Shown piece by piece: positions 9,631 through 48,231 of a stretch of 64,000 nt of DNA (position 1 is its first letter; every line of letters begins with the position of its first letter). This DNA comes from an uncultured Gammaproteobacteria bacterium. GTDB taxonomy: Bacteria > Patescibacteriota > Patescibacteriia > Magasanikbacterales > JBBTQS01. The notes beneath the pieces were generated by a model. The model made no database searches and was not told where the DNA came from. It saw only the letters and a program-made list of their open reading frames with translations. Location: positions 502,359 through 566,358 of the forward strand of contig OZ246400.1 of NCBI GenBank assembly GCA_965230935.1, in the 5' to 3' direction. Both the position numbers and the translations under genes were made by a program.

Positions 9631-9659
9631 TTGACAAAGTTCAGGCAATTTTTTATAGT
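9631..9659 (+). promoter_or_regulatory. sigma70-like promoter TTGACA-17-TATAGT for the 9743 gene
   Basis: TTGACAAAGTTCAGGCAATTTTTTATAGT. A GAGGAGGG SD lies 7 nt before the ATG at 9743. Confidence 0.45.
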
Positions 9660-9742
9660 AAGACATCCCAATTGGGAGACTGTGACATCGGTCGCAGTTG
9701 GTTTCGCTCTTTTTCATGGATGCTTACGAGGAGGGCATCGCC

Positions 9743-11017: not shown

Positions 11018-11146
11018 CGCATCGACCACAACACATAACAACTGACAACGAGATCGCTCTGCTAAACCTTCAGCGGGGTGATTTTTATTTAGAATTAAAA
11101 GAACCTCGCGAACGCGCCACGAGACTCTCTTGTTGTTAGTTAGTTG

Positions 11147-12991: not shown

Positions 12992-13374
12992 GGTTGTCCT
13001 CCCTGTAGCTGCGAGTTCGATGTTCGATAAGACGATTCTAGGCCAATCCCAGCATCATCTCACGAATCCGAACTCTCAGCTCATAAAAAGAACTGTCTAT
13101 ATTTAGTATAGACCAACTGATTTAGTATCCAAAATCAGGAGGATATATTGTAGGATTTCAGCGTAATTTTGTCAATAATTGAAAAACCACCAAAGATTAC
13201 TTTAGTGGCCTTTCAAATTTGGAATTTTGCATTCCAGTAATGTGCAGGCTACTGAACGACGTCGACAACCTTCTGCTCCAAATGCAGGAAAATCCCCTAA
13301 AATGGCAAAACCCACATACGATGTACTCGTCGTGGGCTGCGTTGTTGTGAGTTAGTTATTGGATGTTGGCCGAC

Positions 13375-14409
13375 CTACGAGTCGTACCGGTCAGGTTTGT
13401 CGTAGGCGATGATTACAATATCGATGCCGGAGATGTGATGATCGCGCCAGCCACGATTCTTACTGGCGATACGCCAAGCAACCGCCAACCCTGCCATGGT
13501 CGTGCGACCATATGGCAAAGTCAGGTAGTTGTCCCAGTGCGGCAACCCATGCGTCATCGGCAGTCCTGGAAATCCTTCCAGATCGCGACCAACCGGAGCG
13601 TATTGCTTGTTGGTCAACTCGTCGCTCACCAGGACCGTGTCTGAGACTAACTCTTCTTCAAAGGCCGCCCTGATGTGAGGAAAGGGAATCCCCGGAAAGC
13701 TGGTGCCAGGCAAGCGATGCCGTGGCAGACTACCAGGCTCGATCCCGTACTCTTGCTTGTACCGTCCTGGGTAGATCATCTCGTAACCCACCCCTGACTG
13801 GAAGGATTCGAACGTCACGACCCGGACCCCAGCACGATTGAACACGCGACCCGGACCCAGGACACTCGAACCGTTGCCAAGCCCAGCGACATAGACGTCG
13901 ACTTCACGCCCGCGCTGTTCGAGAACCTCTTCTCCGATCGCTGCGAGTGCTGAGGTTGTAATCGTGTTCTCTGTCCCCCCAGCCCACATCGAGTGATTCA
14001 AGAAGAACACATCGGGGTTATCCGGTAGGTACCTCCGGAGAAAATCCGGAAAGCCGCTCACGTAGGTTTCAGCCGAGGTGAAAATGAGCTCTGCGCCCTG
14101 TGCCTTGATGGCCTCCTCACGCGCACGCTCACCCCCTGCAGGGATCGCGACTATACAATGGTAGCCGAGCTCGCGACCAATCCCAGCAAATGACACGCCG
14201 GCGCTCCCTGAGGTTGTCTCCAACACCTTGTCACCTGGCTGTATCCGTCCCTGGCTTTCCCAGTACCGGAACAGCGCGAGGTACACCCGATCGTAGTGAC
14301 TCCCCCACGGGTTGTCGCACTCCAACTTGAGCCAGATGCGACAGTCGTTTGGCACATACCCGCTGTATTGAACCAGCGGAGTATTACCGATACTCTTCAG
14401 TATGGACAT
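13375..14409 (-). CDS. PLP-dependent enzyme of the CysK/CBS (Trp-synthase beta) superfamily
   Basis: MSILKSIGNTPLVQ... and TSGSAGVSFAGIGRELGYHCIVAIP resemble the cysteine-synthase N-terminus and the lysine/Gly-loop region. Start at the internal Met; the ORF extends to 14493. About 57% GC. Confidence 0.7.
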   Translation of the reverse strand: MSILKSIGNTPLVQYSGYVPNDCRIWLKLECDNPWGSHYDRVYLALFRYWESQGRIQPGDKVLETTSGSAGVSFAGIGRELGYHCIVAIPAGGERAREEAIKAQGAELIFTSAETYVSGFPDFLRRYLPDNPDVFFLNHSMWAGGTENTITTSALAAIGEEVLEQRGREVDVYVAGLGNGSSVLGPGRVFNRAGVRVVTFESFQSGVGYEMIYPGRYKQEYGIEPGSLPRHRLPGTSFPGIPFPHIRAAFEEELVSDTVLVSDELTNKQYAPVGRDLEGFPGLPMTHGLPHWDNYLTLPYGRTTMAGLAVAWRIASKNRGWRDHHISGIDIVIIAYDKPDRYDS

Positions 14410-15543: not shown

Positions 15544-16032
15544 TTATGCAGTTGCACGTGCTTCAACCGTACTAGTACGTCGGGTACGTGCGCGACTGGT
15601 TGCCGGCTTGGTTTCTTTCACTGCTTTTGTATGCTCATTTGGCATGGCACATTTTCCATGCAACGTAGCACCACCTGCCACAATCAACCGTGCCGCTTGC
15701 ACATCACCGATCACAACTGCAGTCTCGGTTAACTCAAGCGTATCTTTGATTTTGACATTACCAGTAATCTCTCCGGAGATCTTTGCGTTTTGTGCACTGA
15801 CACTTGCCAAAATCTTAGCGCCGGTCTCGACAGTCAGATCTTTTGCTGTCTTGACATTGCCGGCAACTGTCCCTTGGACAATCATACTCCCTTTACTGCT
15901 AAAATCCCCTTCGACCTCTACTGAAGGACCAACAATGGTCTCCACATCATGGCCTACCTCTTGCTGAGTATCTACAGTGATCTCTTGTTGATCGCGATCG
16001 TTCTCCTCTTGTTTATTCTTTTGTTTGAACAT
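15544..16032 (-). CDS. Bactofilin-family cytoskeletal protein
   Basis: Repetitive beta-helix pattern (VEGDFSSKGSMIVQGTVAGNVKTAKDLTVETGAKILASVSAQNAKISGEITGNVKIKD...) typical of DUF583/bactofilin, with basic termini. Confidence 0.7.
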   Translation of the reverse strand: MFKQKNKQEENDRDQQEITVDTQQEVGHDVETIVGPSVEVEGDFSSKGSMIVQGTVAGNVKTAKDLTVETGAKILASVSAQNAKISGEITGNVKIKDTLELTETAVVIGDVQAARLIVAGGATLHGKCAMPNEHTKAVKETKPATSRARTRRTSTVEARATA

Positions 16033-21899: not shown

Positions 21900-21980
21900 C
21901 ATGAGAGCTTGCCGGTACCAATACCGGTGTACCAATCATCCCGTTTCAACCGGCCAACACACGGCCAAGGGGGTTTTCCC

Positions 21981-22976
21981 GTGTTTAGTTACCGTAAGGC
22001 GCTGGACGCCTTCATCGTCCTAGCTGTGCTGCTCTTCGCGAGCGTGGCCATGGCCCAGACCCAGGTGCAATTCCGGATCAGCTCGGACTTCTATTGGGCC
22101 GACGACACCACCCGTGGTGAGCAGAAGGCCCCGGAGTTCGACGCCAAAACCGATGCACGGCGGCGTGTGGGCATGATGGTCCACTCGTCCATGGGCGGGA
22201 GCGTGAGCTACCTCACCACCTTCCCCCAGGTGCTGCTGGTCAATGGGCGCAAGATGAACCTGCACGACCGGGCTGGCGATCACGAGCCGATCATGACGCT
22301 CATGCTGAGTGTCGGTTCGTACAAGATCAACGGGTTCGTGATCCAGGCGCTCGACGGAGCCTGGCACTGGGTCAAGCCGTTCACCATCCGTGTCCGGGGC
22401 AACTCGCGCGCCATGGTGCACACCGTGCGTGTGACCAAGCAGATCGCGCAGGTGACCTGGAGCCCACGGCACTGCCTGGCGCACAGGGGCAGCAGCGCGT
22501 GCTACGACCCGAACCTCTACAGCCGCCGCTACAACTTCGACTTCTCGGGGAAGAAGGTCGTGGCGATTCCGGAGGGTCAGTATGACATCGTACGTCGGCC
22601 CAACACCCCGGCGTTCGACGACTACTGCACCTACGACCAGTCGTGTAGCGACAAGGACGTGGCAGCGCACCAGACCATGTTCGCGCTCTCGTGCAGCGGG
22701 GCCGGCAACAACAAGACCTACCGCCGGTACAGTTGCGAGAAGCTGGACAAGCCCGATGCCCTCGGGATGACAGTCACCTTCACCGAGTTGGTCATCGACG
22801 CCGATCTCGCCGAGTCGGTGACGCTGTACCAGACCGGCCATGAGCCACGTACGGTGCATGCTGGCCAGACCCTGAAGGTGAACACCGGCGACACCTACTC
22901 CTTCGTGGCGCCGGCGCCTGCCAAAGCCGAGGGTGAAGGCAAGCAAGCAGAGGCCAAAGGAGACACCGGCGGCTGA
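21981..22976 (+). CDS. Secreted hypothetical protein (about 62% GC)
   Basis: A GTG start preceded by AAGGGGG (7-nt spacer) gives the signal peptide VFSYRKALDAFIVLAVLLFASVAMAQ. The mature part has several Cys pairs and a C-terminal Ala/Glu/Lys-rich tail. ATG 21909 is an alternative, near-leaderless start. Confidence 0.55.
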   Translation: MFSYRKALDAFIVLAVLLFASVAMAQTQVQFRISSDFYWADDTTRGEQKAPEFDAKTDARRRVGMMVHSSMGGSVSYLTTFPQVLLVNGRKMNLHDRAGDHEPIMTLMLSVGSYKINGFVIQALDGAWHWVKPFTIRVRGNSRAMVHTVRVTKQIAQVTWSPRHCLAHRGSSACYDPNLYSRRYNFDFSGKKVVAIPEGQYDIVRRPNTPAFDDYCTYDQSCSDKDVAAHQTMFALSCSGAGNNKTYRRYSCEKLDKPDALGMTVTFTELVIDADLAESVTLYQTGHEPRTVHAGQTLKVNTGDTYSFVAPAPAKAEGEGKQAEAKGDTGG

Positions 22977-23062
22977 CGCTTCGCTGCAAGGCGACCAAAC
23001 ACACAACAACCCACAACGAGAACGCACGCCAACTGGCGCGCTGTTTTCTTTTTGTGCCGGTA

Positions 23063-23091
23063 TTGACAACTGGCACAAAACGCGCTAAGGT
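23063..23091 (+). promoter_or_regulatory. sigma70-like promoter TTGACA-17-TAAGGT
   Basis: TTGACAACTGGCACAAAACGCGCTAAGGT. It resembles the groES promoter (shared CGCTAAG[AG]T -10 region). Confidence 0.4.
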
Positions 23092-23160
23092 ACGTATCTT
23101 GGGATGAGCAGTGCACAGGGCCAGACTCAATGACAACACCCGAGATAGGAGGAACGTCGT

Positions 23161-23727
23161 ATGATGCGATCCATCGGGATTGCGTTGTTGACCGTACTGG
23201 CCTTGGCCAGTGAAGCGCAGGCGCAGCGTGCTCCGAGCCCGGCGCAGATCCAGCGTCAGCGTGAGTACGTGGAGTACCTCGAGGGCGAGGCGCAACGCGC
23301 GCAGGAGATGCATTACCTGCGCGAGCGCGAGCAACGCGCACGTCAGGAGTTGCGCGAGTACGGTGGGGGCGGCTACTACCCTCAGCAAGGTGGCGGTGGC
23401 TACTACCCTCCTCAGGGGGGCTATGCCCCGCCGGGGTACCATCCTGGCTACCAGCCGGGTTATGGTCCGCCGCCAGGACATCATCCCGGTGGATATTATC
23501 CCCCACCATGTGAGCATGGTGGGGGGTACGGGCCACCGATGTACCATCCTGGCATGGATCGCCCGGGGCCGGGGTACTACCCACAGACCGGATCCGACTA
23601 TGGTTACCGACCGGCGCCAGCACCCCATCGGCTGCGCAGAGCGCGCGTACGACGTGCCCCGCGACAGCACCGCTATCGCAGACCGGTCCCGGTTCGACGA
23701 CGCGTCGTGCGCCGGCGCCATCGCTGA
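23161..23727 (+). CDS. Secreted low-complexity Gly/Tyr/Pro-rich protein with an Arg-rich C-terminal tail (about 65% GC)
   Basis: SD GGAGGAACGTCGT precedes ATG ATG. Signal peptide MMRSIGIALLTVLALASEAQA. Repeats GGGGYYPQQGGGGYYPPQGGYAPPGYHPGYQPGYGPPPGHHPGGYYPPP. Tail RRARVRRAPRQHRYRRPVPVRRRVVRRRHR. Confidence 0.5.
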   Translation: MMRSIGIALLTVLALASEAQAQRAPSPAQIQRQREYVEYLEGEAQRAQEMHYLREREQRARQELREYGGGGYYPQQGGGGYYPPQGGYAPPGYHPGYQPGYGPPPGHHPGGYYPPPCEHGGGYGPPMYHPGMDRPGPGYYPQTGSDYGYRPAPAPHRLRRARVRRAPRQHRYRRPVPVRRRVVRRRHR

Positions 23728-23860
23728 GAACCACAACCAACACACAACGAGACGACCGATCAAACGATCTGGTCGTTTTCAATTCACACCATTTGACACA
23801 AAAATCATTTCACGATAGGATACTTCTCTATCTCTGGGGAGAGGGGTTGATATTGAACAC

Positions 23861-25139: not shown

Positions 25140-28100
25140 CTATGTCGAATCCAAGGTCGATCCAGAACTTTCTGGATGCGTGGTGTCAGATGGATTCTTT
25201 TGATTATCTGCGGGTGCATGCTCATGGTGCCCGCCTTTGTTGTCTTCCCGACCATATTGTGCGAGTTCTCGCATCTTGGCAAAGTCAAACTCTGGTTGAT
25301 CTTCCTTTACTTCTGGTTCAGTAGATGGTGGCGGGTTTTGTAACAACTTCTCTGTTGATTGTGGCGACTCCTCTTTTGGCTGAACCTCAGACGTTTCAAC
25401 AAGTGGCTTGTGATGTGGCCCGGCTAATCCAACAGTTGGTTGTAATGCTCCCGGATGAATCGTCGCGTTTTTGGCAATCACCCCGGTTGGCGTCTCAATC
25501 GTAATATGATCGGTTTTTCTACGACGATATCCAGACTTCTCATACGTCACATAGTAGGTATTTGGGCCAACCAAAAATGCATACCGGCCTTTACCCCGGG
25601 TGACTTGAGTTTCAAGTAATTTGTTGTACCGTGCATCAAAAATGCGCACGACTGCCTTACTCAAGGCTACATTAGTTGCTCCATCGAATACCACGCCCCA
25701 TTCACGCACCTTAGCAATCATGTGTACTCGCCTGACAAAAATAAACGTCAGTACGTGGAAAAGTAATGCCAAAGAAACCAAGATTGTTGGACTGATGACA
25801 AACGCGACCACTGCCGCAGCAACACCTGAGTAACTCACTGCCGCCTGGATACCCTTTTTAACCTGATCAACGCGCACCTGAGTAACCTGACGAGAATCCT
25901 CTTGTGGATCAAGGCCGATATTTGGAATCAGATACATTGATTCGGTATCAACGGTAATCACTTCGCCGTTGTAGATCTTCCCAAAGGTAGGGTCTTCGGT
26001 TTTGCTAATCAAGTATGGCGCTGGAAATGCAAACCCGTGTTTTCTGACTTCAACCCGATATGATCCACGTGTGACAAAAAACCCAAACCGTCCATGCACA
26101 TCTGTTACCCGCGTTTGTACCACGCGATTTGTCTGATCATTAATCAGACGAACCAGTGCCAAATCAATTGGCAACTTCGTTAATGCATTAAAGACCACAC
26201 CCCAACTCTTTTGTTTACGCCGCGAGAATAGTCCAATAAACTGAGAAAACAACAGATACAAATATGATGGAATTGAAGGAAGGGTTCCGGCAGCGGTTGC
26301 CACGTTCAATGCAGCAACACCAGCTAATGCCGGGGTAGCGACTTGTTCCGTAACGTGTTCAACTTGAGGATCATCGATTACCCGGTTGATTGCACGCACT
26401 GCTTGTGTGGTAGTGTCAACCACACTTTCAATTACGGTAGGAATGCGAGTTGGCGTGCTCGTGCTCAGCGTGACTGGTATCGTACTTGTTGGCACCATCT
26501 CCACCGTACTGGTTGGACTACTGGTTACTACGGGTGATGAACCATCGGGCTCAACTGGCCCAGGGCCGTCTGGAGTTGGCCCCACTGGTTCAGAACCAGG
26601 TGGCACACCAGGATCGTCAGGGTCTATTGGAGGATCAGGATCGACTGGTGGATCCTCTCCATCAGGAGGGTTACTTGGTATTGGTACCTCAGGAAGCTCC
26701 CCAACTTGGACAGATACCACATTAGGATCACTGGTGTTTGTTGCCTGATCACTTGATGTTACTTCAAGGTGATGCTCACCATCACTTACCTGAGCAAAAC
26801 TTACCTCCCAATCACCGTTGGCGGCTGCATCAACAGTTTGTGTTACGACACCAGCAATACGAAGTGCACCAGCAAGTGGCTCATCTCCGTCAAATGTTTT
26901 TGTGGCGACTATCTTGGCAAGTGGTTCGGTTTTACCTGAGACCACAAGATACTTGATACCATTCTCCGTAACCTCGATTTCAACATCCACGTCTGGAATT
27001 TCAGGCGCTAACCGGTCGAGTACAACCAGTGCGCGTCGGGAATAGATCACGTCATCATCTTGCAGTCCCACAAACTCCACCTGATAAATTCCATCCTCGT
27101 CCGGTAAAGTAAATTCACCTTCATATCCTTGAGTCGGATCTTCAACCAGAATCTTATTTGCTAAATCAACTTTTTTGGCGAGGTCAATCACAAAGTGGGT
27201 GTATGCTTTTGCAAATGCAAACACCGGAACGCTCAACACGTTGGTATACTTATTGCCATTGTTCAACACAAATTCACCCGGGCCTGGTTTTGGTTGTTTA
27301 GGTTTTTTCACCAGAGCAAAATCTCGATTGCTATTCAATAACTCCTCGCCGGTACCATCATCCCGCACCTGAAGCACAATACGATAGGTGCCGATCTCAC
27401 TCACGGACGGAAATTGTACTACCCATACTTTTTCAGTATCAGTAATATCGGAGGGGAATAGCGAAACTGACGACGAACTCTCATCATCCAAATACGGCAC
27501 ATACACGGTAGCTTGCTCACCGGTTTCAGGATCATCGGTCACCAATGTGCGATACAAGGTGAGTTGGGTAGTCTTACCACTATAGATCCCATGACCAGTT
27601 ACGGTCAGTTTGTGGTGGTCTGCTGCCAATGGATCACTCACGTTATGCAATACACTTGCTCCTTCCTGAGGATTATCAATCTCCACTTCTGGTGGAGCAA
27701 TTTTCTCATACGTAATACTTTGCTGATACACCTTGGTCACTCCACCATTAATGGTTTCGAACTTTGCATATACAATCTTTCCCCCTTCGCCATCACTCAG
27801 CGTGTGAGGAATAATTCCGTTTTCAAATGCAGCGATGGTTTCCCATTTTGAATTAACAAACGCGGAATCATTTGACAATGCAATTGATTTAGCTCCAGAC
27901 AAAAACACAGTAATGTCCACATCCTGCTCATGAGTTACTGAAGCACCGTCATTAATCAAAAACGCGGCTCCTGTGGGGTTGTCTCCATCAGGAACAGGAT
28001 CTGCAGGAGGAGATGGATTGCTTCCTCCAGTGCCTCCTTCAGTAGTGGCACTAATCGGCCCGGTATATCCTGAAGCAATATTATCTCCGTTAAATGCGCG

Positions 28101-31100
28101 TACCTGAAATGAATATGTCGTGTTACTTGAAAGGTCATTGAACGTGTGGGTCGTTGCACTCAATCCGGTTACGGTATCACCGGTAGTAATATTTTCTACT
28201 TCATATGTTGTGGTTGGTCCATTGCTATTTGCCCCCCACGTAAGGGTAATTGATTCACTACTATCTACTTGGGCTGCAAAACTATTTGGCCTTGCTGCTA
28301 AGGTATAAATCGCTGTACTCGTAGCATACGAAGAATTTCCCGCAGTGTTCTCTGCACGAACCCGCGCATAATGCACACTGTTTGGATCAAGGCTACTTAA
28401 CGCAACCGTGGTTGCATTGGGAGCATTCAACGCATAATCACTAAAAGAAGACCCATCAGTTGACGTTTGGATACGGAAAAGCCCCTCCACTGATGAATTG
28501 TCAGTCCACGAAAACGTGATCGCACTTGCCGTTACGCTTGAGGTGCCAACACTGGTCGGCGCCTTTGGAATATCTTGCAACGTAAACGTGGACGTTGCAG
28601 ACCACGCACCAACAGACCCATCATCATCAACATACGCCACACGCCAGTAGTACGCCGTGTCAGTCGCTCCTTCTCCACCATCATCATCTAGTGCCAATGA
28701 GAGTGTCGCGGCACTGCCAAGCGCATCATAAGTGATATCACTACAGCGATTACCTTGGGTACAATCACTTACCGTTGATCCACCAGCACCGGAGTCCCAA
28801 TGGGTAATCGAATCCATGGCTATATCAGTACTGACCTGAATTCGTGCCTTGTTTGCGGTATCGCCACTATCCGGATCATTGTAGATTGCCGAAAATGCCG
28901 GAGTGGTGTCAGTCAAACCGGTTGGATTGGTATCTCCCGAACTTGCATCATCATTATTTGAATATAAAGTAGTTGGTGCCGTTGGCGTTCCATTGCCATT
29001 AAAAGTTCCTGCAGCACCATTATTGGTATTTCCAGTTCCACCGGTTACAGCAACATCGCCGGACGAAACACTATTTGCCGTGATATAGGCGACGGCAATA
29101 CACCCGCCACCACCGCCACCACCAGCAGAACTTCCACTTGCCCCACCAGTAGCAGTCATACTTGATGGTGTCCCCGCAACGGTATCAGCAATGATATAGA
29201 TCCCCCCGCCAGCACCACCTCCACCGTTCGTACCGGTACCGGCATTTCCATCGGCCGTAACTGTACCGGCAATGTGCAAGGTATTAGTCACTTCAAATCG
29301 TATATGACCACCACCCGAACCTCCGCTGTTGGCTCCCGTGCTTCCTGAACCACCTGCAGAACCTGTGGTTCCGGGTGTTGAAGTCACACAATACGCTATA
29401 CCAGCAGCACCAGTTCCAGCGCCACCAGCGCCACCATGACCACCACCGCCACCACTACCAGCACCAGAACCACCGCCGCCGCCTGGGCCATTACCACTCC
29501 CACCAACAGCAGTGTGAACTTTGTATCCCTTGCCATCCACATTAATTGATCCACCGCTTGCAACTGTTGATGAAGAAGCTTCTAAATGAATTACATGCGT
29601 CTGCGCCGTATCATTTTGTCCATGGGTCAGTGTTCCGCCACTATTAATTGCTAAGGTATCAAGTGGCAGTGGGTTTGATGATGTGGTGAAGCTACGCATG
29701 TCAAACGTTCCACTACTTCCCAAAATCATATCAACACTACTCGAAGATGTGAGTGTTCCCCCAGCGTCTAAAATCAACTTTCCATTGGAAATAGTGAAGT
29801 TGGTTGTCGATGTTGGTGTAAAGGTCCCTCCAGAATCAACTTGCAATGATCCCGTACCATCACCCCCTGAAAATGGATCACCATTACGCAAGACCAACGT
29901 ATGCGTCGTGCTCACCACATAGATGGCAGAGGTGTCCATGTGCAAAGTGTCTGCAGTGATCGAACTTGCACCTTGCGTTGATCCAGCACCAGAACCACTG
30001 TTGATAGCATACAAATCTCCATCAGTGCCATCCTTTTTAAGGTAGGCATACCCGGCGCCACCGCGCTCATTGGTTCCGGTACCGCCGGTCAAATCAAGAT
30101 GGCTGGTTGCAGAAACCGAGTTGGTTGTTGCGTACTCAAGATACACACACCCGCCTCCACCACCACCGTCACCAGTACCACCAGCGCTGTTTCCGCCCGC
30201 AACAGAAAAGCTTTGCGGAGTTCCGACAATCGCACCAGCACTATCAACTTTTACTCCTCCACCGGCACCACCAGCACCATTGGTATTTATCCCGACCCCA
30301 CCTTCAGCTAAAATTTTTCCATTCAACGTCACGGCACTCGATGCAGTAAGCATAAATAATCCGCCGCCAGATCCACCCCCGTTTGCACCACCAGATCCCG
30401 AACCACCTGCAGATCCGATCGTGGATGGGTTAGTTACGTCACAATATCCGGTTCCACCGGGATCTAAACCACTCGCACCATCACCACCATCACCACCATG
30501 TGCACCACCGGCACCACCAGTTGCACCTGACCCATGACCAAAACCTGGCCCAAAACCATTTCCTCCGACAGTGGTTTTCACGATATATCCTTTTCCATTC
30601 AAATACACCACACCTCCTGAGTCGAGGGTGAAAGTAGCAACACTGAGATCAAGTTCATTCACTTGTGAATCTATATTTCCTCCATGAGTGAGATACCCCC
30701 CACTGTTCACCGCTAGTGTGCCACTGATTGTCTTGGTAGACGTGCCATATTGTGCCAGCTCACCTCCTTGACGAACCGTAATATCATCACCCACCGTAAT
30801 GTCATGAGCAAGACGCAACGTTGACGTCACCACACCGGCACCATCTCCGATGGTCAGTGTGTCAAACGAAATTGCGGCAGTGGTACTTACCGTTGCGGAA
30901 ATATCAATGGTCACATCATCCCCATCTGCCGGCACACGAGACAAATCCCAGTTTGCAGTATCAGACCAACTCGTTCCATCTCCACTTCCGGTCCAGGTAA
31001 TCGCAATACCACCATGGGCTTGTTGGGTAAGTAATCCTGGCCAACCAACTGATGCAACAATTACCCATATAAGCAAAGAGGCTACGATCAACAATCGCCA

Positions 31101-31232
31101 AGGATGTTTTACAAACAAAAAAATCTGCGCGAGAACAGATGCCAAGAAACCCGTCTTTTTTGTGTCCAAAAATAAAACGGTTCCCGTTTTGTGATCAGGA
31201 TCAAATCCTTTGTTCGACGAAGGTATTGCCAT
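25140..31232 (-). CDS. Giant (2030 aa) Gly-rich cell-surface protein: N-terminal signal anchor, two ~270-aa beta-helix-like modules, three FN3-like domains, a Pro-rich linker, and a C-terminal two-TM module with two CarboxypepD_reg-like domains
   Basis: Single uninterrupted ORF. Motifs NGKGY, GGxGGAHGGDGG, YCDVTNP, GGGGAGGG, GGGGGGC. FN3-like ITFSWTDNSS.../ITLTWGANSNGPTTTYEV.... TM segments at aa 35-60, about 1590 and about 1740. Confidence 0.85.
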   Translation of the reverse strand: MAIPSSNKGFDPDHKTGTVLFLDTKKTGFLASVLAQIFLFVKHPWRLLIVASLLIWVIVASVGWPGLLTQQAHGGIAITWTGSGDGTSWSDTANWDLSRVPADGDDVTIDISATVSTTAAISFDTLTIGDGAGVVTSTLRLAHDITVGDDITVRQGGELAQYGTSTKTISGTLAVNSGGYLTHGGNIDSQVNELDLSVATFTLDSGGVVYLNGKGYIVKTTVGGNGFGPGFGHGSGATGGAGGAHGGDGGDGASGLDPGGTGYCDVTNPSTIGSAGGSGSGGANGGGSGGGLFMLTASSAVTLNGKILAEGGVGINTNGAGGAGGGVKVDSAGAIVGTPQSFSVAGGNSAGGTGDGGGGGGCVYLEYATTNSVSATSHLDLTGGTGTNERGGAGYAYLKKDGTDGDLYAINSGSGAGSTQGASSITADTLHMDTSAIYVVSTTHTLVLRNGDPFSGGDGTGSLQVDSGGTFTPTSTTNFTISNGKLILDAGGTLTSSSSVDMILGSSGTFDMRSFTTSSNPLPLDTLAINSGGTLTHGQNDTAQTHVIHLEASSSTVASGGSINVDGKGYKVHTAVGGSGNGPGGGGGSGAGSGGGGGHGGAGGAGTGAAGIAYCVTSTPGTTGSAGGSGSTGANSGGSGGGHIRFEVTNTLHIAGTVTADGNAGTGTNGGGGAGGGIYIIADTVAGTPSSMTATGGASGSSAGGGGGGGCIAVAYITANSVSSGDVAVTGGTGNTNNGAAGTFNGNGTPTAPTTLYSNNDDASSGDTNPTGLTDTTPAFSAIYNDPDSGDTANKARIQVSTDIAMDSITHWDSGAGGSTVSDCTQGNRCSDITYDALGSAATLSLALDDDGGEGATDTAYYWRVAYVDDDGSVGAWSATSTFTLQDIPKAPTSVGTSSVTASAITFSWTDNSSVEGLFRIQTSTDGSSFSDYALNAPNATTVALSSLDPNSVHYARVRAENTAGNSSYATSTAIYTLAARPNSFAAQVDSSESITLTWGANSNGPTTTYEVENITTGDTVTGLSATTHTFNDLSSNTTYSFQVRAFNGDNIASGYTGPISATTEGGTGGSNPSPPADPVPDGDNPTGAAFLINDGASVTHEQDVDITVFLSGAKSIALSNDSAFVNSKWETIAAFENGIIPHTLSDGEGGKIVYAKFETINGGVTKVYQQSITYEKIAPPEVEIDNPQEGASVLHNVSDPLAADHHKLTVTGHGIYSGKTTQLTLYRTLVTDDPETGEQATVYVPYLDDESSSSVSLFPSDITDTEKVWVVQFPSVSEIGTYRIVLQVRDDGTGEELLNSNRDFALVKKPKQPKPGPGEFVLNNGNKYTNVLSVPVFAFAKAYTHFVIDLAKKVDLANKILVEDPTQGYEGEFTLPDEDGIYQVEFVGLQDDDVIYSRRALVVLDRLAPEIPDVDVEIEVTENGIKYLVVSGKTEPLAKIVATKTFDGDEPLAGALRIAGVVTQTVDAAANGDWEVSFAQVSDGEHHLEVTSSDQATNTSDPNVVSVQVGELPEVPIPSNPPDGEDPPVDPDPPIDPDDPGVPPGSEPVGPTPDGPGPVEPDGSSPVVTSSPTSTVEMVPTSTIPVTLSTSTPTRIPTVIESVVDTTTQAVRAINRVIDDPQVEHVTEQVATPALAGVAALNVATAAGTLPSIPSYLYLLFSQFIGLFSRRKQKSWGVVFNALTKLPIDLALVRLINDQTNRVVQTRVTDVHGRFGFFVTRGSYRVEVRKHGFAFPAPYLISKTEDPTFGKIYNGEVITVDTESMYLIPNIGLDPQEDSRQVTQVRVDQVKKGIQAAVSYSGVAAAVVAFVISPTILVSLALLFHVLTFIFVRRVHMIAKVREWGVVFDGATNVALSKAVVRIFDARYNKLLETQVTRGKGRYAFLVGPNTYYVTYEKSGYRRRKTDHITIETPTGVIAKNATIHPGALQPTVGLAGPHHKPLVETSEVQPKEESPQSTEKLLQNPPPSTEPEVKEDQPEFDFAKMRELAQYGREDNKGGHHEHAPADNQKNPSDTTHPESSGSTLDST

Positions 31233-31409: not shown

Positions 31410-34400
31410 CTATGACGTATTTTGCGTTTTATCTTTCGGCACATCGGCAGTGTGATCGTAATGACCGCCAGATTTATCTTCTCGCCCATACAATGCCATC
31501 TCTCGCATCTTTGCAAAATCAAACTCTGGTGATTCATTTTTGGATGGTGGTACTTTGGTCTGTTGATCGTCTGAAGTCGCTGTCGGCTTTTGAGGAGGTG
31601 CCGGAGGCGCGGGAGTCTGTTCTGAACCAGAAGAATCCTCTGATGCAGAACGCGAAGTGTTATCCTCCACAACATCAACTAATGGCTTGTGGTGTGGTCC
31701 AGCAAGTCGTACGGTTGGTTGTTGCGTTCCAGGAGTAAGTTTTTCATCACGTGCGATCATGTCACTGACATTAGTAATCACAACTTCATCTGTTTTTTTG
31801 CGTGTATATCCGGATTTTTCATACGTAAGGTAGTACGTGTTTGGCCCAACCAAGAATGCATACCGGCCATTTCCATGCGTGACCTGCGTTTCTAGTAATT
31901 TATTGTACTGTGCATCGAATAACCGAACCACCGCTTTACCTAATGCGCGACGGGTCTGCGCATCAGCCACAACACCCCACTGTGTTGGTTTGATAATGCC
32001 ACGTACTCGGCGCAAAAAGACAAAGGTCAAAATGTGAAACGCCAGTGCTAGTGTCACAATAATGGTTGGCGAAATAACAAATGACACTCCTGCAGCAGCA
32101 ATTCCAGAAAAGCTAACAATACGCTGGAGGTGTTTGAGGACCTGATCACGACTGATTCGCGATACGGCACGAGCATCTTCTTGTGGATCAAGTGCAATAT
32201 TTGGTGTGATGTATTGTGATGCACTGGTTATTTGAATTTTCCCTCCATCGTACAACTGACCAAAATGCACATCTTCAGTCTTTCCAGCAAGATATGGTGC
32301 AGGAAACGCAAAGCCGCGTTTCGTGACCTCAATACGATAGGAACCTTCGGCAGCAAAGAATCCAAATCGACCATAGGTATCAGTCACGCGTGTTTGTATT
32401 ACACGTCCGGTTGCATCGTCAACAAGTCGAATGAGTGCCAAATCAATTGGCAGCCGAGTGAGCGCATTAAATACCACACCCCATTGTTTTTTACGACGAC
32501 CAAACAGACCGAAAAATTGGGAGAGCAGCAAATACAGATACGGTGGAATCGATGGTAACGCTGCAGCTGAAGACACCACGTTTACCGTTGCAACCGTTGC
32601 CAATACCGGTGTTGCGATCTCTTCAGTAACTTGTTCAACTTGAGGGTCATCTACAAACGTTGCCACCGCTTCATAACCAGTAACTAAAGCGTAGATGGTT
32701 CGTTGTGCAAGTGGTGCCTCGTCTGAAGAAGTAGTCATCGTACTGGTACTCGTCTCAGGTTCCACAACAATGACCGGTGTTGGCAATGTAACCGGCTCTG
32801 GTGTCGAGGTGCTCGCCGGTGTACTTGGTGCTGCAGCATCAGGCGCTGGCGCTGCTGGAGCGGATGGTGCAGGCGTTGACGGAGCCGAAGGTTCTGGTGC
32901 AGCCGGAGTTGGGGTACTTGGCGCCGGACCTGTTGGCTGATCTGATGGCGCCGGATCTGTCGATGTTGGATCTGGTTGTGATTCCGGCTCAGTCGAGGGG
33001 TCCTCTGGCGGTTCGGCTGGTGCGTCGGGCACATCATCCCCTGCAATAACTGAAACTTCGGCAATATCACTGGTATTGTCTGCGCGGTCTTGCACAGAAA
33101 CCGCGAGGGTATGCTTACCATTCTGCAACCCAGAGAATGAAAGTTCCCAATCACCGTTCGCGGCCGCTTCGGTTGTCTGGGTAGTCACACCAGCAATACG
33201 CAAAACACCAGCAATTGGTTGTGGAATATCAGGACTTGTTTTGGTTACAATCACTTGCGCAAATGGCTCAGTTTTACCGGAGAGCACCAATTGTGTTTGG
33301 CTATCACTACGACCAGTCTGCACTTTTTGAAGCTGATAGTTAACTTCTGGTGTTTTCGGTGGCGTACGATCAAGCACCACCATGCCACGACGGCGATAAA
33401 TCGATTCTCCTGTTTTATCAAAAGCAACAAATCCTAAAAAGTACACACCATCTTTTTCCGGAAGGATAAATTCCCCTTCCCATGGCTCGCCCACTGCAAC
33501 GGTTGATTGCTTATCTGCTAGGTTGATGTCCCGAGCAAGATCAATCACAAAGTGTGTAAACTCCTGTGCATAAATGTATACCGGCACTTTTAATTCGTTC
33601 GTATATTTTTGGCCATGATTCACCATAAACTCTCCCAGAGAACCTGGCTGTGGACTACGCGTTGCAGCCACCAAAGTAAAGTCACGATGTTGTGTGGCAA
33701 CAATGTCGCCAGAACTGTCATCAATAATGTTGGTGGTCAATCGATATGCTCCAAGCGTATCAACCGCTGGGAATGACGCATTCCACTTTTTATCAGCATC
33801 ACTAATCGCTGATGGAAACAATGACACTTGAGAACGTTCTTCACTGGCAAGATACGGCACATAGGCAATACTCCGTTCCCCTTCTTGATCAATGGATGTG
33901 ACAACTTGATACAATGTAAGCACTGTTGTCTTATCTTCAAATACACCATGACCAGCCACAGAAACCGTCTGAAAATCAGCTTGATCACGTTGGGTGAGAT
34001 TATGCGATACCATTGCACCTTGTTCTGGAATATCAATCACCAATGCTGGCGCTTGTGTTGTCTGATACGTAATGACTTGTCGATATACTTGAGAAACTGC
34101 ACCGTTTACCGTTTCAAATTTCGCATAAATAATTTTGCTGCCCGCCCCGTCCGGCAATACAAATGGAACCGTATTATCACGAATGCTATCGAGTCGAACC
34201 CACTTAGCACCGGTAAACGTTGGTTCTGAAGAAAGAGTTACAGAAGTTGCTTTTGGCAAATACACTGTGACATCAACATCACGAATAAATGTAGTGCGTG
34301 CACCATCATTAATTAAGAATGTTGCGCCGGTTGGATTTTCTCCGCTTGGTTCTGGTTCACTTGGTGGAGCTGGGGTCGAGCCGCCAGTACCACTTGACGT

Positions 34401-37400
34401 AACATTTACAATAGCGGTTGAAAAAAGACCCACAGCACCATTATTATTCCCGCCAACTCCACCGGTTTTCGTCACGTCATCTTCAATCAAACTAATCGAG
34501 GATGTGTAGTTAAACAATGCACACCCACCGGCGCCACCACCACCTTCAGTTGCACCACTCGCGCCGCCAGTAATGGTAAAGCTTTGTGGACTACCTGCAA
34601 TTACATTGGCGGTAAATTGCACCCCACCACCGGCGCCACCACCACCAGAACTGTCTGTTCCGTTACCACCATCAGCAGTGACAGTCCCGTTAATTGTTAA
34701 AGTCCCAGTAATATCGAGCTCAATAAATCCACCACCAGCGCCACCTGCTTGAGATGGTGCACCACTACCACCTGATGAGCCAATAGTACCAGGATCACTT
34801 GCAATACAATATGCGGAGCCACCAGAAACACCACCGGCGCCACCAGCGCCACCATGACCAGCACCTCCACCGCCAGTCGATGCGGTATTAGTTCCACCAC
34901 CAGGACCATTTCCACTTGACCCATAGCCTTTCCCGTCTACATCAATAGCGCCTCCTACAGCAACTGTCGAAGAAGTAGCGGAGATATAAATCACATTTGT
35001 TTGTGTTGTATCGTTGGTTCCGTGCGTAAGTGTCCCCCCATCATTAATTAATAGTGTGTTAAGTGTTAAAGAATCTGATGACGTGGTAAAACTCCGCATA
35101 TCAAAAATACCATCATCACTAACCACCACATTGATATTATTTGATGAGGTAAACGTCGCACCAGCGTCTAGAATAACTGTTGTACTCGTAATCGTAAAAT
35201 CAACCGTTGATGTCGGTGTAAAGATGGCCCCTGAAGCAAGCTGTAACGAACCAGTTGCATCACCGTCAGCAAGTGGATCACTATTTTGCATCACAAACGT
35301 CCGACCAGAAGGCACAAGATATGTTGCTGAAGTTTGGGTAACAAGTGTATCAACGGTCAATGTCTCTGCGCCTTGAGTTGAGGTCTCACCGCTTCCCCCA
35401 TTAATCGAATACAAATCCCCATCAGTCCCACTTTGCTTAGTATAGATATATCCAGCACCCCCTCGTTCTGCACCACCAGTTCCTCCAGACATAGTAATAG
35501 ATGATGTTACAACAATTGAATTTGATGTAGTAAAGGACAAAAGTGCGCATCCACCCCCACCTCCGCCAGTTCCAGAAGATCCGCCATTACCACCAGTGGT
35601 AGTAAATGATTGTGGTGTCCCTTTAAAGTCCGCGGCAGTAAGTTTAACCCCACCACCAGCCCCACCACCCCCACGGGTAGCATCACCAACACCACCATCA
35701 GCGGTAATAGTTCCGTTAATTGTAAAATCCCCGGTGGCAGCAAACACAATCAATCCACCACCATACCCACCAACTTCTCCACTTGGGCCAAACCCACCAG
35801 AAGATCCAATCGTCCCTGGATCAGTCACGTCACAATATCCAGTCCCACCACTTGCTCCGCCTGTATCTCCCCCATCACCAGCATGGGCGCCTCCCGAACC
35901 AGCAACTGAAGCACTCGAGCCACCGCCACCAGGACCGTTGCTCGTAGCTGCACTCGAGTGTGGCTCATACCCCTTACCGTCAACATTAATTGAGCCACCG
36001 GCCTCGATTGTTGAAGAGGCAACAGAGATATTAATAACATGCGTCTGTGTAGTTGTGTTTTGACCATGAGTAAGGTTGGCACCGTTGTGGATCATCAATG
36101 TATTAAATGGTTGTGCTGCAGATGATGTGGTAAAACTGCGCATATCAAGTGCGCCATCGTATTCCACGAACACATCTAAAGAAGAGGAAGAAGTAATAGT
36201 TGATCCTGAAGTGATAATTAATGTAGAGCTTGCGATTTCAAAATCGGTTGTTGATGTCGGAGTAAATATTGCCCCGGAGGCGATTTGTAACGAGCCGGTA
36301 GCATCACTTTCATCAAATGGGCTGACATCTCTAAGCACCAACGTATTCCCTGATGGGACCAGATACACTGTTGATGTGTTTATGGTTAATGAATTAGCAG
36401 TGATGCTCGTTGCCCCTTGGGTGCTCGATGCGCCACTCGCTCCACTGTTGACTGAATACAGATCACCATCGGTGCCATCTTGCTTCACATACGCATATCC
36501 ACCACCACCTCGCTTATTTCCACCAGTACCTCCACCCATACTAACGGTTGAAGTCGCTGAGATGCTATTTGATGTGGTGTAAGAAAGCAAAACACACCCA
36601 CCTCCCCCACCACCACTACTTGTCGCGCCCCCATCACCACCAGAAACAGAAGCCCCTTGTGGTGTCCCAGCAACAATCGCAGCATCAATTTTAATTCCCC
36701 CACCAGCGCCTCCACCCCCGGTAGTGGCTTGGCCAGGATGGCCATCAGCAGTAATGGTACCGTTAATTGTTGCCGTCCCTGAAGCATTGAGGATAAACAA
36801 TCCACCACCGGCGCCTCCAAGTTGTCCACTTGGACCAAACCCACCAGAAGATCCCACTGTTGCTGGATTGGTGACATCACAATATCCAGTCCCGCCAGTC
36901 GCACCCGTTGAATCTCCTCCATCTCCTGCATGTGCACCCCCCGCACCAGCACTTGAGGCACTTGAACCACCACCACCAGAACCATTCCCACTTGGCTCAA
37001 ATCCTTTTCCATTCAAAAACACAAAGCCACCTGATTGCAAATCAAAGGTAGCCACATTCCAGTCCAGTTCATGATCTTGAGTGGTGGTATTTGCTTGGTG
37101 GGTGAGATACCCGCCACTACGAATTTCTAATGTACCAGTGATGGTTTCGGTGAGATCATCAACCTGTGTTAACTCTCCTCCTTGGAAAATAGTAATGTTG
37201 GTCCCTGCAGTGATGGCGTGACCGAGCTTTAGTGTTGATGTTACAGAACCAACTCCATCTCCAAGTGATATATTTGCAAAAGAAATTGCTGCAGTGGTAC
37301 TTACTGTCGCAGCAATATCTATCACAACAGAATCACCTGATGTTGGTAAACGATTAAGATCCCAATTGGCGGTATCATTCCAATCAGTTCCATCACCACC

Positions 37401-37652
37401 ACCATCCCACGTAATGGTCTCACTTACTCCTACTGCAGTAGGCTGCAAATCGCCAATCGGGAACCAATTCACCCCCACGATCACCCACATGAATACAGTA
37501 AACACGACCAACCAACGATATGGGTGATGGATAGTTTTAAAAAAATGACCAAGCAACTTGGTAAATTCTGCAAATTTTTTACCACAAAAAGCCAAAAAGG
37601 TTTTCGGCTTTGGTTCCGAAGCTTGATTGCGGTCCGATAAAGGCATTGCCAT
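31410..37652 (-). CDS. Giant (2080 aa) Gly-rich cell-surface protein, paralog of 25140-31232 with three beta-helix-like modules
   Basis: Same architecture and motifs as the neighbour. The C-terminal ~430 aa are about 65% identical to it (e.g. LPSIPPYLYLLLSQFFGLFGRRKKQWGVVFNALTRLPIDLALIRL..., YAFLVGPNTYYLTYEKSGY, EFDFAKMREMALYGRED). Confidence 0.85.
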   Translation of the reverse strand: MAMPLSDRNQASEPKPKTFLAFCGKKFAEFTKLLGHFFKTIHHPYRWLVVFTVFMWVIVGVNWFPIGDLQPTAVGVSETITWDGGGDGTDWNDTANWDLNRLPTSGDSVVIDIAATVSTTAAISFANISLGDGVGSVTSTLKLGHAITAGTNITIFQGGELTQVDDLTETITGTLEIRSGGYLTHQANTTTQDHELDWNVATFDLQSGGFVFLNGKGFEPSGNGSGGGGSSASSAGAGGAHAGDGGDSTGATGGTGYCDVTNPATVGSSGGFGPSGQLGGAGGGLFILNASGTATINGTITADGHPGQATTGGGGAGGGIKIDAAIVAGTPQGASVSGGDGGATSSGGGGGGCVLLSYTTSNSISATSTVSMGGGTGGNKRGGGGYAYVKQDGTDGDLYSVNSGASGASSTQGATSITANSLTINTSTVYLVPSGNTLVLRDVSPFDESDATGSLQIASGAIFTPTSTTDFEIASSTLIITSGSTITSSSSLDVFVEYDGALDMRSFTTSSAAQPFNTLMIHNGANLTHGQNTTTQTHVINISVASSTIEAGGSINVDGKGYEPHSSAATSNGPGGGGSSASVAGSGGAHAGDGGDTGGASGGTGYCDVTDPGTIGSSGGFGPSGEVGGYGGGLIVFAATGDFTINGTITADGGVGDATRGGGGAGGGVKLTAADFKGTPQSFTTTGGNGGSSGTGGGGGGCALLSFTTSNSIVVTSSITMSGGTGGAERGGAGYIYTKQSGTDGDLYSINGGSGETSTQGAETLTVDTLVTQTSATYLVPSGRTFVMQNSDPLADGDATGSLQLASGAIFTPTSTVDFTITSTTVILDAGATFTSSNNINVVVSDDGIFDMRSFTTSSDSLTLNTLLINDGGTLTHGTNDTTQTNVIYISATSSTVAVGGAIDVDGKGYGSSGNGPGGGTNTASTGGGGAGHGGAGGAGGVSGGSAYCIASDPGTIGSSGGSGAPSQAGGAGGGFIELDITGTLTINGTVTADGGNGTDSSGGGGAGGGVQFTANVIAGSPQSFTITGGASGATEGGGGAGGCALFNYTSSISLIEDDVTKTGGVGGNNNGAVGLFSTAIVNVTSSGTGGSTPAPPSEPEPSGENPTGATFLINDGARTTFIRDVDVTVYLPKATSVTLSSEPTFTGAKWVRLDSIRDNTVPFVLPDGAGSKIIYAKFETVNGAVSQVYRQVITYQTTQAPALVIDIPEQGAMVSHNLTQRDQADFQTVSVAGHGVFEDKTTVLTLYQVVTSIDQEGERSIAYVPYLASEERSQVSLFPSAISDADKKWNASFPAVDTLGAYRLTTNIIDDSSGDIVATQHRDFTLVAATRSPQPGSLGEFMVNHGQKYTNELKVPVYIYAQEFTHFVIDLARDINLADKQSTVAVGEPWEGEFILPEKDGVYFLGFVAFDKTGESIYRRRGMVVLDRTPPKTPEVNYQLQKVQTGRSDSQTQLVLSGKTEPFAQVIVTKTSPDIPQPIAGVLRIAGVTTQTTEAAANGDWELSFSGLQNGKHTLAVSVQDRADNTSDIAEVSVIAGDDVPDAPAEPPEDPSTEPESQPDPTSTDPAPSDQPTGPAPSTPTPAAPEPSAPSTPAPSAPAAPAPDAAAPSTPASTSTPEPVTLPTPVIVVEPETSTSTMTTSSDEAPLAQRTIYALVTGYEAVATFVDDPQVEQVTEEIATPVLATVATVNVVSSAAALPSIPPYLYLLLSQFFGLFGRRKKQWGVVFNALTRLPIDLALIRLVDDATGRVIQTRVTDTYGRFGFFAAEGSYRIEVTKRGFAFPAPYLAGKTEDVHFGQLYDGGKIQITSASQYITPNIALDPQEDARAVSRISRDQVLKHLQRIVSFSGIAAAGVSFVISPTIIVTLALAFHILTFVFLRRVRGIIKPTQWGVVADAQTRRALGKAVVRLFDAQYNKLLETQVTHGNGRYAFLVGPNTYYLTYEKSGYTRKKTDEVVITNVSDMIARDEKLTPGTQQPTVRLAGPHHKPLVDVVEDNTSRSASEDSSGSEQTPAPPAPPQKPTATSDDQQTKVPPSKNESPEFDFAKMREMALYGREDKSGGHYDHTADVPKDKTQNTS

Positions 37653-38355: not shown

Positions 38356-38432
38356 AGACAAAAATTATGATGAACTTCTAATTCCTCCTTTTTGTGCTAT
38401 GAAAATACTACAACATACAGATGTGATCTATG

Positions 38433-38506
38433 TAGGCGCACATGGAATCGAACCATGGACCGCCGAGATATAAGCTCGGTGCTCTAACCAACTGAGCTAT
38501 GCGCCC
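38433..38506 (-). tRNA. tRNA-Ile (anticodon TAT)
   Basis: Minus-strand sequence GGGCGCATAGCTCAGTTGGTTAGAGCACCGAGCTTATATCTCGGCGGTCCATGGTTCGATTCCATGTGCGCCTA. Anticodon loop CTTATAT, G1-U72 wobble in the acceptor, no encoded CCA. Confidence 0.82.
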
Positions 38507-48129: not shown

Positions 48130-48231
48130 AGTATGTCTCGTTATCAATAGGCAAAGTATACCATAAGTATGGCTACTGATCATCGCAAGATTGACGAAAA
48201 ACCAACTCTGTGCTATACTCATCTCAAACCT

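Follow-up and report, generated by a model that had tools for sequence, protein, structure and literature searches.

A C-terminal membrane module with paired transthyretin-like domains in two giant proteins of a Magasanikbacterales bacterium and in diverse surface proteins of related bacteria

The Pam pilus of bacteria of the candidate phyla radiation (CPR) is a donor-strand-exchange filament with membrane-anchored chaperones, and PamR, a membrane-anchored protein containing fibronectin type III (FnIII) domains, has been proposed to terminate and tether this pilus (10.64898/2026.03.03.709456). Pam was placed mainly in Saccharimonadia and Microgenomatia, and the preprint makes no mention of the module described below, of the lineages considered here, or of carboxypeptidase or transthyretin domains (10.64898/2026.03.03.709456). 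The present analysis concerns a stretch of 64,000 nucleotides (hereafter the window) from an uncultured bacterium of the Magasanikbacterales (contig OZ246400.1, positions 502,359 to 566,358, in assembly GCA_965230935.1), in which two adjacent genes encode giant proteins, termed A and B, that end in a shared membrane module containing two CarboxypepD_reg domains. This module is probably a portable polytopic anchor that holds proteins in the membrane by their C-terminus and docks them, through its conserved inner face, to a partner common to all, and it apparently fastens very different surface fibres to the cell in thousands of proteins from a single CPR branch.

Several described anchors and domains resemble the module in part. 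LPXTG and PEP-CTERM signals also consist of a hydrophobic helix followed by an Arg/Lys cluster, are located at the C-terminus, and are found on many unrelated passengers. LPXTG substrates, however, end a few residues past the basic tail, whereas 355-358 residues follow RRK(Q)K in A and B; the module also differs from both signals in lacking a conserved motif next to the helix and in being continued by about 270 conserved residues and a tail. No match to PEP-CTERM, GlyGly-CTERM or similar models was found at the extreme C-terminus in NCBIfam (June 2026; Pfam was used as a 2025 copy). The Mycoplasma cytadhesins (P1, P140/P110) are large adhesins of a wall-poor, single-membrane bacterium, with a C-terminal pass and a Pro-rich cytoplasmic tail thought to contact internal structures, but they have a single helix, lack folded cytoplasmic sandwiches, and show no sequence relationship to the module. 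Both soluble domains of the module share fold and sequence family with CarboxypepD_reg (PF13620; 5aq0/1qmu; CnaB/SdrD_B). Known CarboxypepD_reg members are soluble extracytoplasmic domains, whereas each sandwich of the module comes no more than 5 residues after a membrane helix and a basic cluster, and the two form a fixed pair among three helices and are probably cytoplasmic. Similarity to NOMO of the BOS complex was sub-threshold only (20.2 bits against 27; PDB 9c7v, E 1.4e-6 over 37 residues).

As a unit, the module has no model in Pfam or NCBIfam, no relative in PDB, and no mention in searchable literature. The sandwich fold and the general idea of a shared C-terminal anchor are already known; new is a previously undescribed unit in which one pass and a hairpin are interleaved with two, probably cytoplasmic, CarboxypepD_reg domains.

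Architecture of the module in proteins A and B

Proteins A (2030 amino acids, aa) and B (2080 aa) are encoded in tandem with a gap of 177 bp, and the coordinates and minus-strand orientation of both genes were correct in an earlier reading of the DNA letters (the original prediction). Both proteins start with an N-terminal hydrophobic signal-anchor, followed by Gly-rich repeats, Ig/FN3-type domains, a Pro-rich linker, and the C-terminal module (Table 1). No fn3 match was found in B with Pfam, whereas A has FN3 domains, and the prepilin cleavage/methylation motif of type IV pilins and pseudopilins (PF07963) is absent from both proteins.

The family profile aligned to residues 1611-1930 of A (entry P0117, 414 bits). 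PF13620 (CarboxypepD_reg) was found twice in each module (54.8 bits in A and 44.5 bits in B; gathering cut-off 32.3). The original prediction of a separate and conserved membrane module at the C-terminus, containing two sandwiches of the transthyretin-like type, was supported. The module was modelled with AlphaFold2 (AF2) on a 29-sequence alignment (A1), with module residue 1 corresponding to A residue 1614. The model had a mean predicted local distance difference test score (pLDDT) of 79.5 and a predicted TM-score (pTM) of 0.44; regional pLDDT values were read by 10-residue block. Both domains form the seven-strand transthyretin-like sandwich according to AF2 and Foldseek, and sandwich 1 has an extra loop of about 22 residues (FPxxxL...DLYHGE in the family). 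Foldseek searches against PDB returned single sandwiches only, from the carboxypeptidase D transthyretin-like domain, CnaB, SdrD and HIUase/transthyretin; sandwich 1 matched 5aq0 with a TM-score of 0.78-0.81 relative to the target, and 1qmu and CnaB2 were also matched. No whole-module match was found among PDB chains with Foldseek, and a profile search of PDB sequences gave short sandwich matches alone (NOMO2 and SdrD).

The hydrophobic segments are helices, not buried strands, in the AF2 model. The segment originally read as a second transmembrane (TM) pass comprises about 40 hydrophobic residues and forms a confidently modelled two-helix hairpin (pLDDT 80-92), TM2 and TM3, with an SPT turn at module residues 201-203; TM3 reached a Kyte-Doolittle value of 1.6 or more in 95% of members. 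The best model is one pass plus this hairpin, with three helices in all, in place of the two-TM anchor proposed at first. TM1 is only moderately hydrophobic, failed the Kyte-Doolittle threshold of 1.6, and carries a Q-P conserved across the family in its interior. It is preceded by a further helix, H0, and upstream of TM1 by a conserved [DN]P.VE......AP motif. H0 is probably juxtamembrane or interfacial, though it could be a real membrane pass instead, and it is followed by insertions of variable length in family members P0021 and P0028.

The two halves of the module are homologous. Units 1 and 2, each consisting of basic cluster, WG and sandwich, aligned in hhalign with a probability of 99.8% (E 4.7e-30). 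Therefore, the module is an internal duplication of a hydrophobic segment, a basic cluster, WG and a CarboxypepD_reg beta-sandwich.

All sequence motifs quoted in the original prediction were found in A and B, and its estimate of about 65% identity between the paralogs agreed with the value for the module core (A 1614-1935), 64.5% over 321 aligned positions with one gap. The C-terminal pieces as a whole were 58% identical over 420 aa (E 6e-178, BLASTP). Elsewhere, identity was 57% in the Gly-rich N-terminal region, 48% in the middle region, 50% in the tail, and 26-33% in the linker, the N-terminus and the region holding the FN3 domains of A. The statement that the module is far more conserved than the extracellular part is thus valid relative to the linker, N-terminus and FN3-holding region, but overstated relative to the Gly-rich and middle regions. 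Outside A and B, the tail motif EFDFAKMRE..YGRED was seen again only in their closest orthologs of the giant type. In sandwich 2, YNKLLETQVT did not vary among the 8 sequences of alignment A2, all of them chosen for carrying that motif.

Table 1. Positions of proteins A and B and of their module parts in the window
Feature	Coordinates	Strand	Remarks
Protein A, open reading frame	25140..31232	(-)	2030 aa
Passenger of A	26394..31232	(-)	signal-anchor residues ~37-69, Gly-rich repeats, Ig/FN3 domains, Big_13, Pro-rich linker
Module core of A (residues 1614-1935)	25428..26393	(-)	NPxVE-type lead-in, H0, TM1, sandwich 1, TM2-TM3 hairpin, sandwich 2
H0 of A, uncharged Ala/Val-rich helix TPALAGVAALNVATA (1633-1647)	26292..26336	(-)	AF2 helix 20-34, pLDDT <50
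TM1 of A IPSYLYLLFSQFIGLF (1654-1669), proposed out-to-in stop-transfer pass	26226..26273	(-)	AF2 helix 41-56, pLDDT 54-67
Basic cluster RRKQK after TM1 of A	26208..26222	(-)	family consensus RRKRK; K+R count, 170 members
Sandwich 1 of A (1677-1776)	25905..26204	(-)	PF13620; AF2 module residues 65-163, pLDDT 81-97, mostly >90
Amphipathic basic helix leading into TM2 of A (1783-1813)	25794..25886	(-)	AF2 continuous helix 170-200, pLDDT 69-91
TM3 of A (1817-1836), after uncharged SPT turn from TM2	25725..25784	(-)	followed by RRV..K.R; AF2 helix 204-223, pLDDT 87-92 (69-92 by 10-residue block)
Sandwich 2 of A (1845-1925)	25458..25700	(-)	near-invariant YNKLLETQVT..GRYAFLVG; PF13620; AF2 233-312, pLDDT 89-96 (78-96 by 10-residue block, mostly ~90+)
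Disordered charged tail of A (1936-2030)	25143..25427	(-)	short motif PEFDFAKMRELAQYGRED at 25242-25295
Protein B, open reading frame	31410..37652	(-)	2080 aa
Passenger of B	32673..37652	(-)	signal-anchor residues ~46-67, three Gly-rich repeat units, Big_13, Pro-rich linker
Module core of B (residues 1661-1979)	31716..32672	(-)	family profile match, P0103, 418 bits
H0 of B	32568..32612	(-)	
TM1 of B	32502..32549	(-)	
Basic cluster RRKK of B	32487..32498	(-)	
Sandwich 1 of B	32184..32483	(-)	
TM2 region of B	32073..32171	(-)	
TM3 of B	32004..32063	(-)	
Sandwich 2 of B	31728..31979	(-)	
Tail of B	31413..31715	(-)	PEFDFAKMREMALYGRED at 31476-31529

The module family and its genomic contexts

A word-indexed search identified 33 relatives with 27-45% identity, some of them named Candidatus Magasanikbacteria, with passengers of different kinds. 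An exhaustive profile search of 1.84 billion cluster representatives returned 11,902 sequences at E<=1e-3, 5,321 at E<=1e-10 and 2,919 at E<=1e-30, the last being an upper estimate of true carriers because the counts include CarboxypepD_reg repeat arrays (P0034-P0036, 38-52 stretches). The profile was matched end to end in 147 of the 150 best sequences, and the other three were long arrays of this kind. The module was C-terminal in all 170 sequences examined, with a median of 9.5 and a maximum of 283 residues after it, and the passengers ahead of it were 2-3,623 aa long. An N-terminal hydrophobic signal was present in 102 of these 170 sequences and a prepilin motif in four; the module carriers with prepilin N-methylation signals were P0003, P0015, P0021 and P0028. 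Extracellular-type passenger domains detected in a Pfam census of 46 members were fn3, Pur_ac_phosph_N, PEGA, DUF4215, TSP_3, Big_13 and He_PIG. Between orders, the module retains about 40% identity, but the passengers cannot be aligned; the module is thus conserved across genomes much better than what it carries.

A scan of one genome per species, seeded with an 8-sequence alignment, gave 126 confirmed loci, of which the best was 53% identical, so that the species of the window is not itself represented. The lineages named in informative records of the module loci were Magasanikbacteria, Uhrbacteria, Falkowbacteria, Parcubacteria and 'Patescibacteria group', lineages that we take to make up GTDB class ABY1; many other records bear the generic name 'uncultured Gammaproteobacteria', which we regard as a label given at submission and not as true taxonomy. 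The view that such an anchor is unusual for adhesins holds against textbook anchors, but the module is very common within this bacterial branch.

Short motifs recur in the tails behind the module, namely KIPWELQML, LIQD.EHAHPE and a terminal SIFG, with [DN]F..M[RK][ED][LM]A.YG in the subfamily of the window. Sequences with recurrent tail motifs were P0051, P0075, P0106, P0042, P0076, L033, L039 and L043, and also P0074, P0160, P0136, P0134 and P0130. One set of tails has KIPWELQ(M/I)L followed by repeats of LIQD.EHAHP(D/E), and in a second class an acidic stretch resembling a coiled coil runs to the very end of the protein, where it closes with SIFG. Tails extending 100-283 aa past the module were inspected for folded domains specific to the cytoplasm, and only disorder with short motifs was seen.

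Genomic context was analysed by calling and clustering open reading frames (ORFs) in 83 related loci. In about 50 of them, a module protein of approximately 1,000-1,200 aa is encoded by the third gene of a conserved operon, F3-F2-MOD-F1-F4, carried by genomes of the Magasanik-, Uhr- and Falkowbacteria type; examples are L074:1746-12363 and the loci L062, L009, L012, L013 and L063. F3 (about 300 aa, secreted) matched the Pam pilin C domain in 18 of 21 cases and PamT in 17 of 21 in NCBIfam, all below the curated cut-offs (best E values, 5e-19 for PamT and 9e-12 for the pilin C domain); it is apparently a distant homologue of the Pam pilins and PamT. F2 consists of beta domains between a signal peptide and a C-terminal TM segment with RKRKR, and it is a distant homologue of Enterococcus EfmWxLIP1, which its profile matched (E 3.6e-6). 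The WxL-interacting protein (WxLIP) family (DUF916/DUF3324; PDB 9i25), described in PMC10599100, has the same build of signal peptide, beta domains, C-terminal TM segment and basic tail; this likeness concerns the neighbour gene F2 in related loci and not the module, and F2 is absent from the window. F1 is a secreted protein of 1,000-2,000 aa without a family match, and F4 is a polytopic membrane protein with C-terminal tetratricopeptide repeats (TPRs). The operon has the appearance of a divergent system for surface filaments, related to Pam and WxL, in bacteria beyond the classes that the Pam preprint names.

The module proteins of this operon contain fn3 domains, and their anchor has three helices. 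In position and general build they resemble PamR, a secreted FnIII protein with a C-terminal membrane anchor that is encoded in a CPR pilin/chaperone operon, but PamR is described with an N-terminal donor strand, two FnIII domains and a single C-terminal helix, and without CarboxypepD_reg domains. The operon-type module protein would fill the role proposed for PamR. Such placement does not apply to A and B of the window. Giant-type module proteins of about 2,000-2,300 aa, like A and B (L004-L006, L019, L054, L056, L057, L078, L081), lie outside that operon, and no homologues of F1 (searched with BLAST), F2 or F3 were found in the window. A third context is that of the pilin-type carriers P0015 (L001:10001-12097) and P0021 (L003:8106-9779), which have an N_methyl N-terminus, a pilin-like head and the three-helix C-terminal module, in a conserved neighbourhood of Fpg, carrier, PAP2, YceG/MltG and DUF2207 genes. 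A pilin anchored to the membrane at both ends could not join a pilus unless cleaved.

Membrane topology and the weighing of explanations

Charged residues were counted in 170 family members aligned to the profile. Mean numbers of lysine plus arginine (K+R) and of aspartate plus glutamate (D+E), respectively, were 1.6 and 3.2 in the lead-in before H0, 0.7 and 0.3 in the H0-TM1 stretch (38 columns), 5.1 and 0.28 in the 12 columns after TM1, 5.3 and 1.44 before TM2, 0.26 and 0.02 in the TM2-TM3 turn, and 4.0 and 0.19 after TM3. The median best 17-residue Kyte-Doolittle values were 1.41 for TM1, 1.81 for H0, and about 2.2 for TM2 and TM3. According to the positive-inside rule, an established guide to topology, the conserved basic clusters after TM1, before TM2 and after TM3 place the sandwiches and the tail in the cytoplasm. 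The module would therefore probably have an N-out, three-TM, C-in topology, with the passenger outside, both sandwiches and the tail cytoplasmic, and only the turn of the TM2-TM3 hairpin exposed outside. The actual pass may be H0 or a register between H0 and TM1, and the sandwiches would be inside either way. With both sandwiches assigned to the cytoplasm by the basic clusters, a partner is more likely to reside in the cytoplasm or the membrane than in the cell wall, an option included in the original prediction.

Apparently 'stand-alone' modules (P0099, P0120, P0030) were considered as topology evidence under a reverse signal-anchor idea and set aside. P0099 lies directly after a 997-aa Cohesin/Big gene in a locus disrupted by 23S_rRNA_IVP and looks like part of a split gene, and the others are on short contigs of approximately 1.2-4.8 kb and may be fragments. 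At L084:3052-9245, an operon-type module gene is apparently broken up into ORFs of 449, 997 and 414 aa, among which a gene of the 23S_rRNA_IVP family is inserted. Database entries for 'stand-alone' modules can thus be artefacts of gene disruption.

In the anchor that we favour, the passenger would be exported by Sec via its N-terminal signal peptide or signal-anchor until one pass within the 38-residue uncharged H0/TM1 stretch acts as a stop-transfer and the RRKRK cluster retains the chain on the cytoplasmic side. Sandwich 1 would then fold against the inner face of the membrane, TM2 and TM3 would enter the membrane together as a hairpin of two helices that exposes no more than a minimal turn (x-P-T/S) outside, and the second sandwich would stay inside along with the disordered, motif-bearing tail. 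Three helices together with two mechanically robust transthyretin-like domains could serve as a rivet against the pulling of long fibres, in a one-membrane cell and here without a sortase signal. The near-invariant sandwich surfaces (WGVVYNSLTKLP, VTD..GRY, DLYHGE, NIPLDP and YNKLLETQVTD) and the tail motifs may dock the fibres to one cytoplasmic or membrane partner, or to each other. An anchor that also docks a partner is favoured because a passive anchor needs neither near-invariant sandwich surfaces nor recurring tail motifs.

Several points weigh against this reading. The topology was assigned from charge statistics only, TM1 is weakly hydrophobic as a stop-transfer for a passenger of 1,600 residues, and AF2 modelled it with low confidence (pLDDT 54-67). 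The usual location of CarboxypepD_reg domains is outside the cytoplasm, and passengers contain this fold as well. The long Pro/Ala-rich tails resemble wall-spanning regions of Gram-positive surface proteins. A partner was not found, the neighbours in the window being housekeeping genes, and the rivet is a function that we infer.

The opposite orientation corresponds to the cell-wall partner of the original prediction: H0-TM1 and TM2-TM3 would form two hairpins, each dipping into the membrane, and the sandwiches, along with the Pro-rich tail, would lie between membrane and wall and attach to peptidoglycan or a different polymer of the envelope. It would suit a first uncharged stretch of about 38 residues, as long as the TM2-TM3 hairpin, with H0 slightly more hydrophobic than TM1. 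It would also agree with the duplicate nature of the two units, with the occurrence of CarboxypepD_reg, CnaB and SdrD_B folds typically in surface proteins, and with tails that appear wall-spanning. We consider it unlikely, however, as it would leave about 14 conserved Lys/Arg outside and none inside, so that three separate sites would break the positive-inside rule. In addition, an Asn is conserved within H0, which was modelled with pLDDT <50, and P0021 and P0028 have long insertions of Ala/Ser/Thr between H0 and TM1 that suit a flexible external linker over a tight hairpin. It also appears improbable that the module works actively in the membrane, for example as an oligomeric pore, as a factor that assembles or exports its own passenger or neighbouring pilus subunits, or as a transducer of signal or force. 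An active device of this kind could account for conserved polar residues within the helices (T-Q-P in TM1 and a His in TM3 of many members), for conservation that is extreme for a mere anchor, as in YNKLLETQVT, and for the fixed place of the module gene in a pilus-like operon adjoining the polytopic membrane/TPR protein F4. Against it, no similarity to a transporter, secretin, usher or enzyme family was found in Pfam, NCBIfam or PDB, each chain contributes three helices of which TM1 is marginal, and the same module is attached to dozens of unrelated passengers and lies outside any operon in the window. Secretion-system and defence readings were rejected, as NCBIfam and Pfam supported none; the module likewise matched no secretion-system or sortase-substrate family.

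We give very little credence to the remaining explanation, in which TM1 and RRK form a tripartite sorting signal cut by a sortase-, exosortase- or rhomboid-like enzyme, so that the fibre is freed to the wall and the module is a remnant. The order of motif, hydrophobic helix and basic cluster had led to the description of this region as sorting-signal-like, the [DN]P.VE......AP motif is conserved upstream, and pilin-type members would be stuck in the membrane while the module remains attached. However, LPSIP[SP] is specific to the A/B paralogs and replaced by unrelated residues in relatives, the conserved motif lies about 40 residues ahead of the basic cluster and not adjacent to the helix, and the most conserved part of the protein, which is folded, is the approximately 270 residues past the supposed signal. 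LPXTG, PEP-CTERM and other CTERM models were unmatched at E<=1 in NCBIfam, and no sortase-like gene was found among the neighbours scanned, several ORFs of the window and loci being left unscanned.

Surroundings of the two genes and implications

The genes around A and B encode valyl-, tyrosyl- and arginyl-tRNA synthetases (ValRS, TyrRS, ArgRS), a bactofilin, a DHH protein, a Vut_1 transporter, RluA, Cmk, L19 and UvrA, and the window also contains four tRNA genes, including tRNA-Ile(UAU), and a class A RNase P RNA. The tRNA-Ile with anticodon UAU (38432-38506) reads AUA directly and not via a modified CAU tRNA, which is uncommon in bacteria. The bactofilin gene (15544-16032, minus strand) is approximately 9 kb from the giant genes; its product is a conceivable cytoskeletal partner of cytoplasmic anchor domains, with nothing connecting the two.

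Two parts of the window stand out in G+C content. An island of 61% G+C at 21900-23800, within a genome of about 45% G+C, probably contains two plus-strand ORFs for secreted proteins, one at 21909-22976 and the other, with GGYYPPQ-type Gly/Tyr/Pro repeats, at 23161-23727; it gave no Pfam match in any frame, and the opposite strand has long spurious ORFs. A second G+C-rich stretch at 9650-14000 (56-62%), possibly of foreign origin, contains a gene for a Ser/Thr protein kinase (11147-12991, minus strand) and, at 9698-11017 (plus strand), an ORF with weak PEGA/CarboxypepD_reg matches. At 43976-47398 (minus strand), a 1,140-aa ORF without a Pfam match and unrelated to the F1-F3 operon families lies directly upstream of a membrane DsbA-like thioredoxin gene (47398-48222), with a one-base overlap on the same strand.

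CPR bacteria, or Patescibacteria, are thought to be host-attached, a lifestyle in which contact is made through surface fibres. The module makes the anchoring of fibres in these single-membrane cells directly testable, as a defined target for topology and partner-finding work. In the Magasanik-/Uhr-/Falkowbacteria branch it is shared by thousands of surface proteins that are not related in other respects, and with its profile (alignment A1) the surface proteome encoded in such genomes can be listed by sequence. It is also a candidate anchor of a divergent Pam-like pilus beyond the classes in which Pam was reported. If its sandwiches are cytoplasmic, the module would represent an unusual use of a normally extracellular fold.

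More tentatively, the module may be a lineage-specific transmembrane coupling device that links all classes of surface fibre of these episymbiotic, ultra-small cells, namely giant adhesins, a Pam-like donor-strand pilus component and pilin-headed proteins, to one conserved cytoplasmic hub via the sandwich pair and the tail motifs. To our knowledge, such an organising principle has not been described for a bacterial surface. If it holds, the placement of fibres, their load-bearing or the signalling of host contact would be organised from inside the cell.

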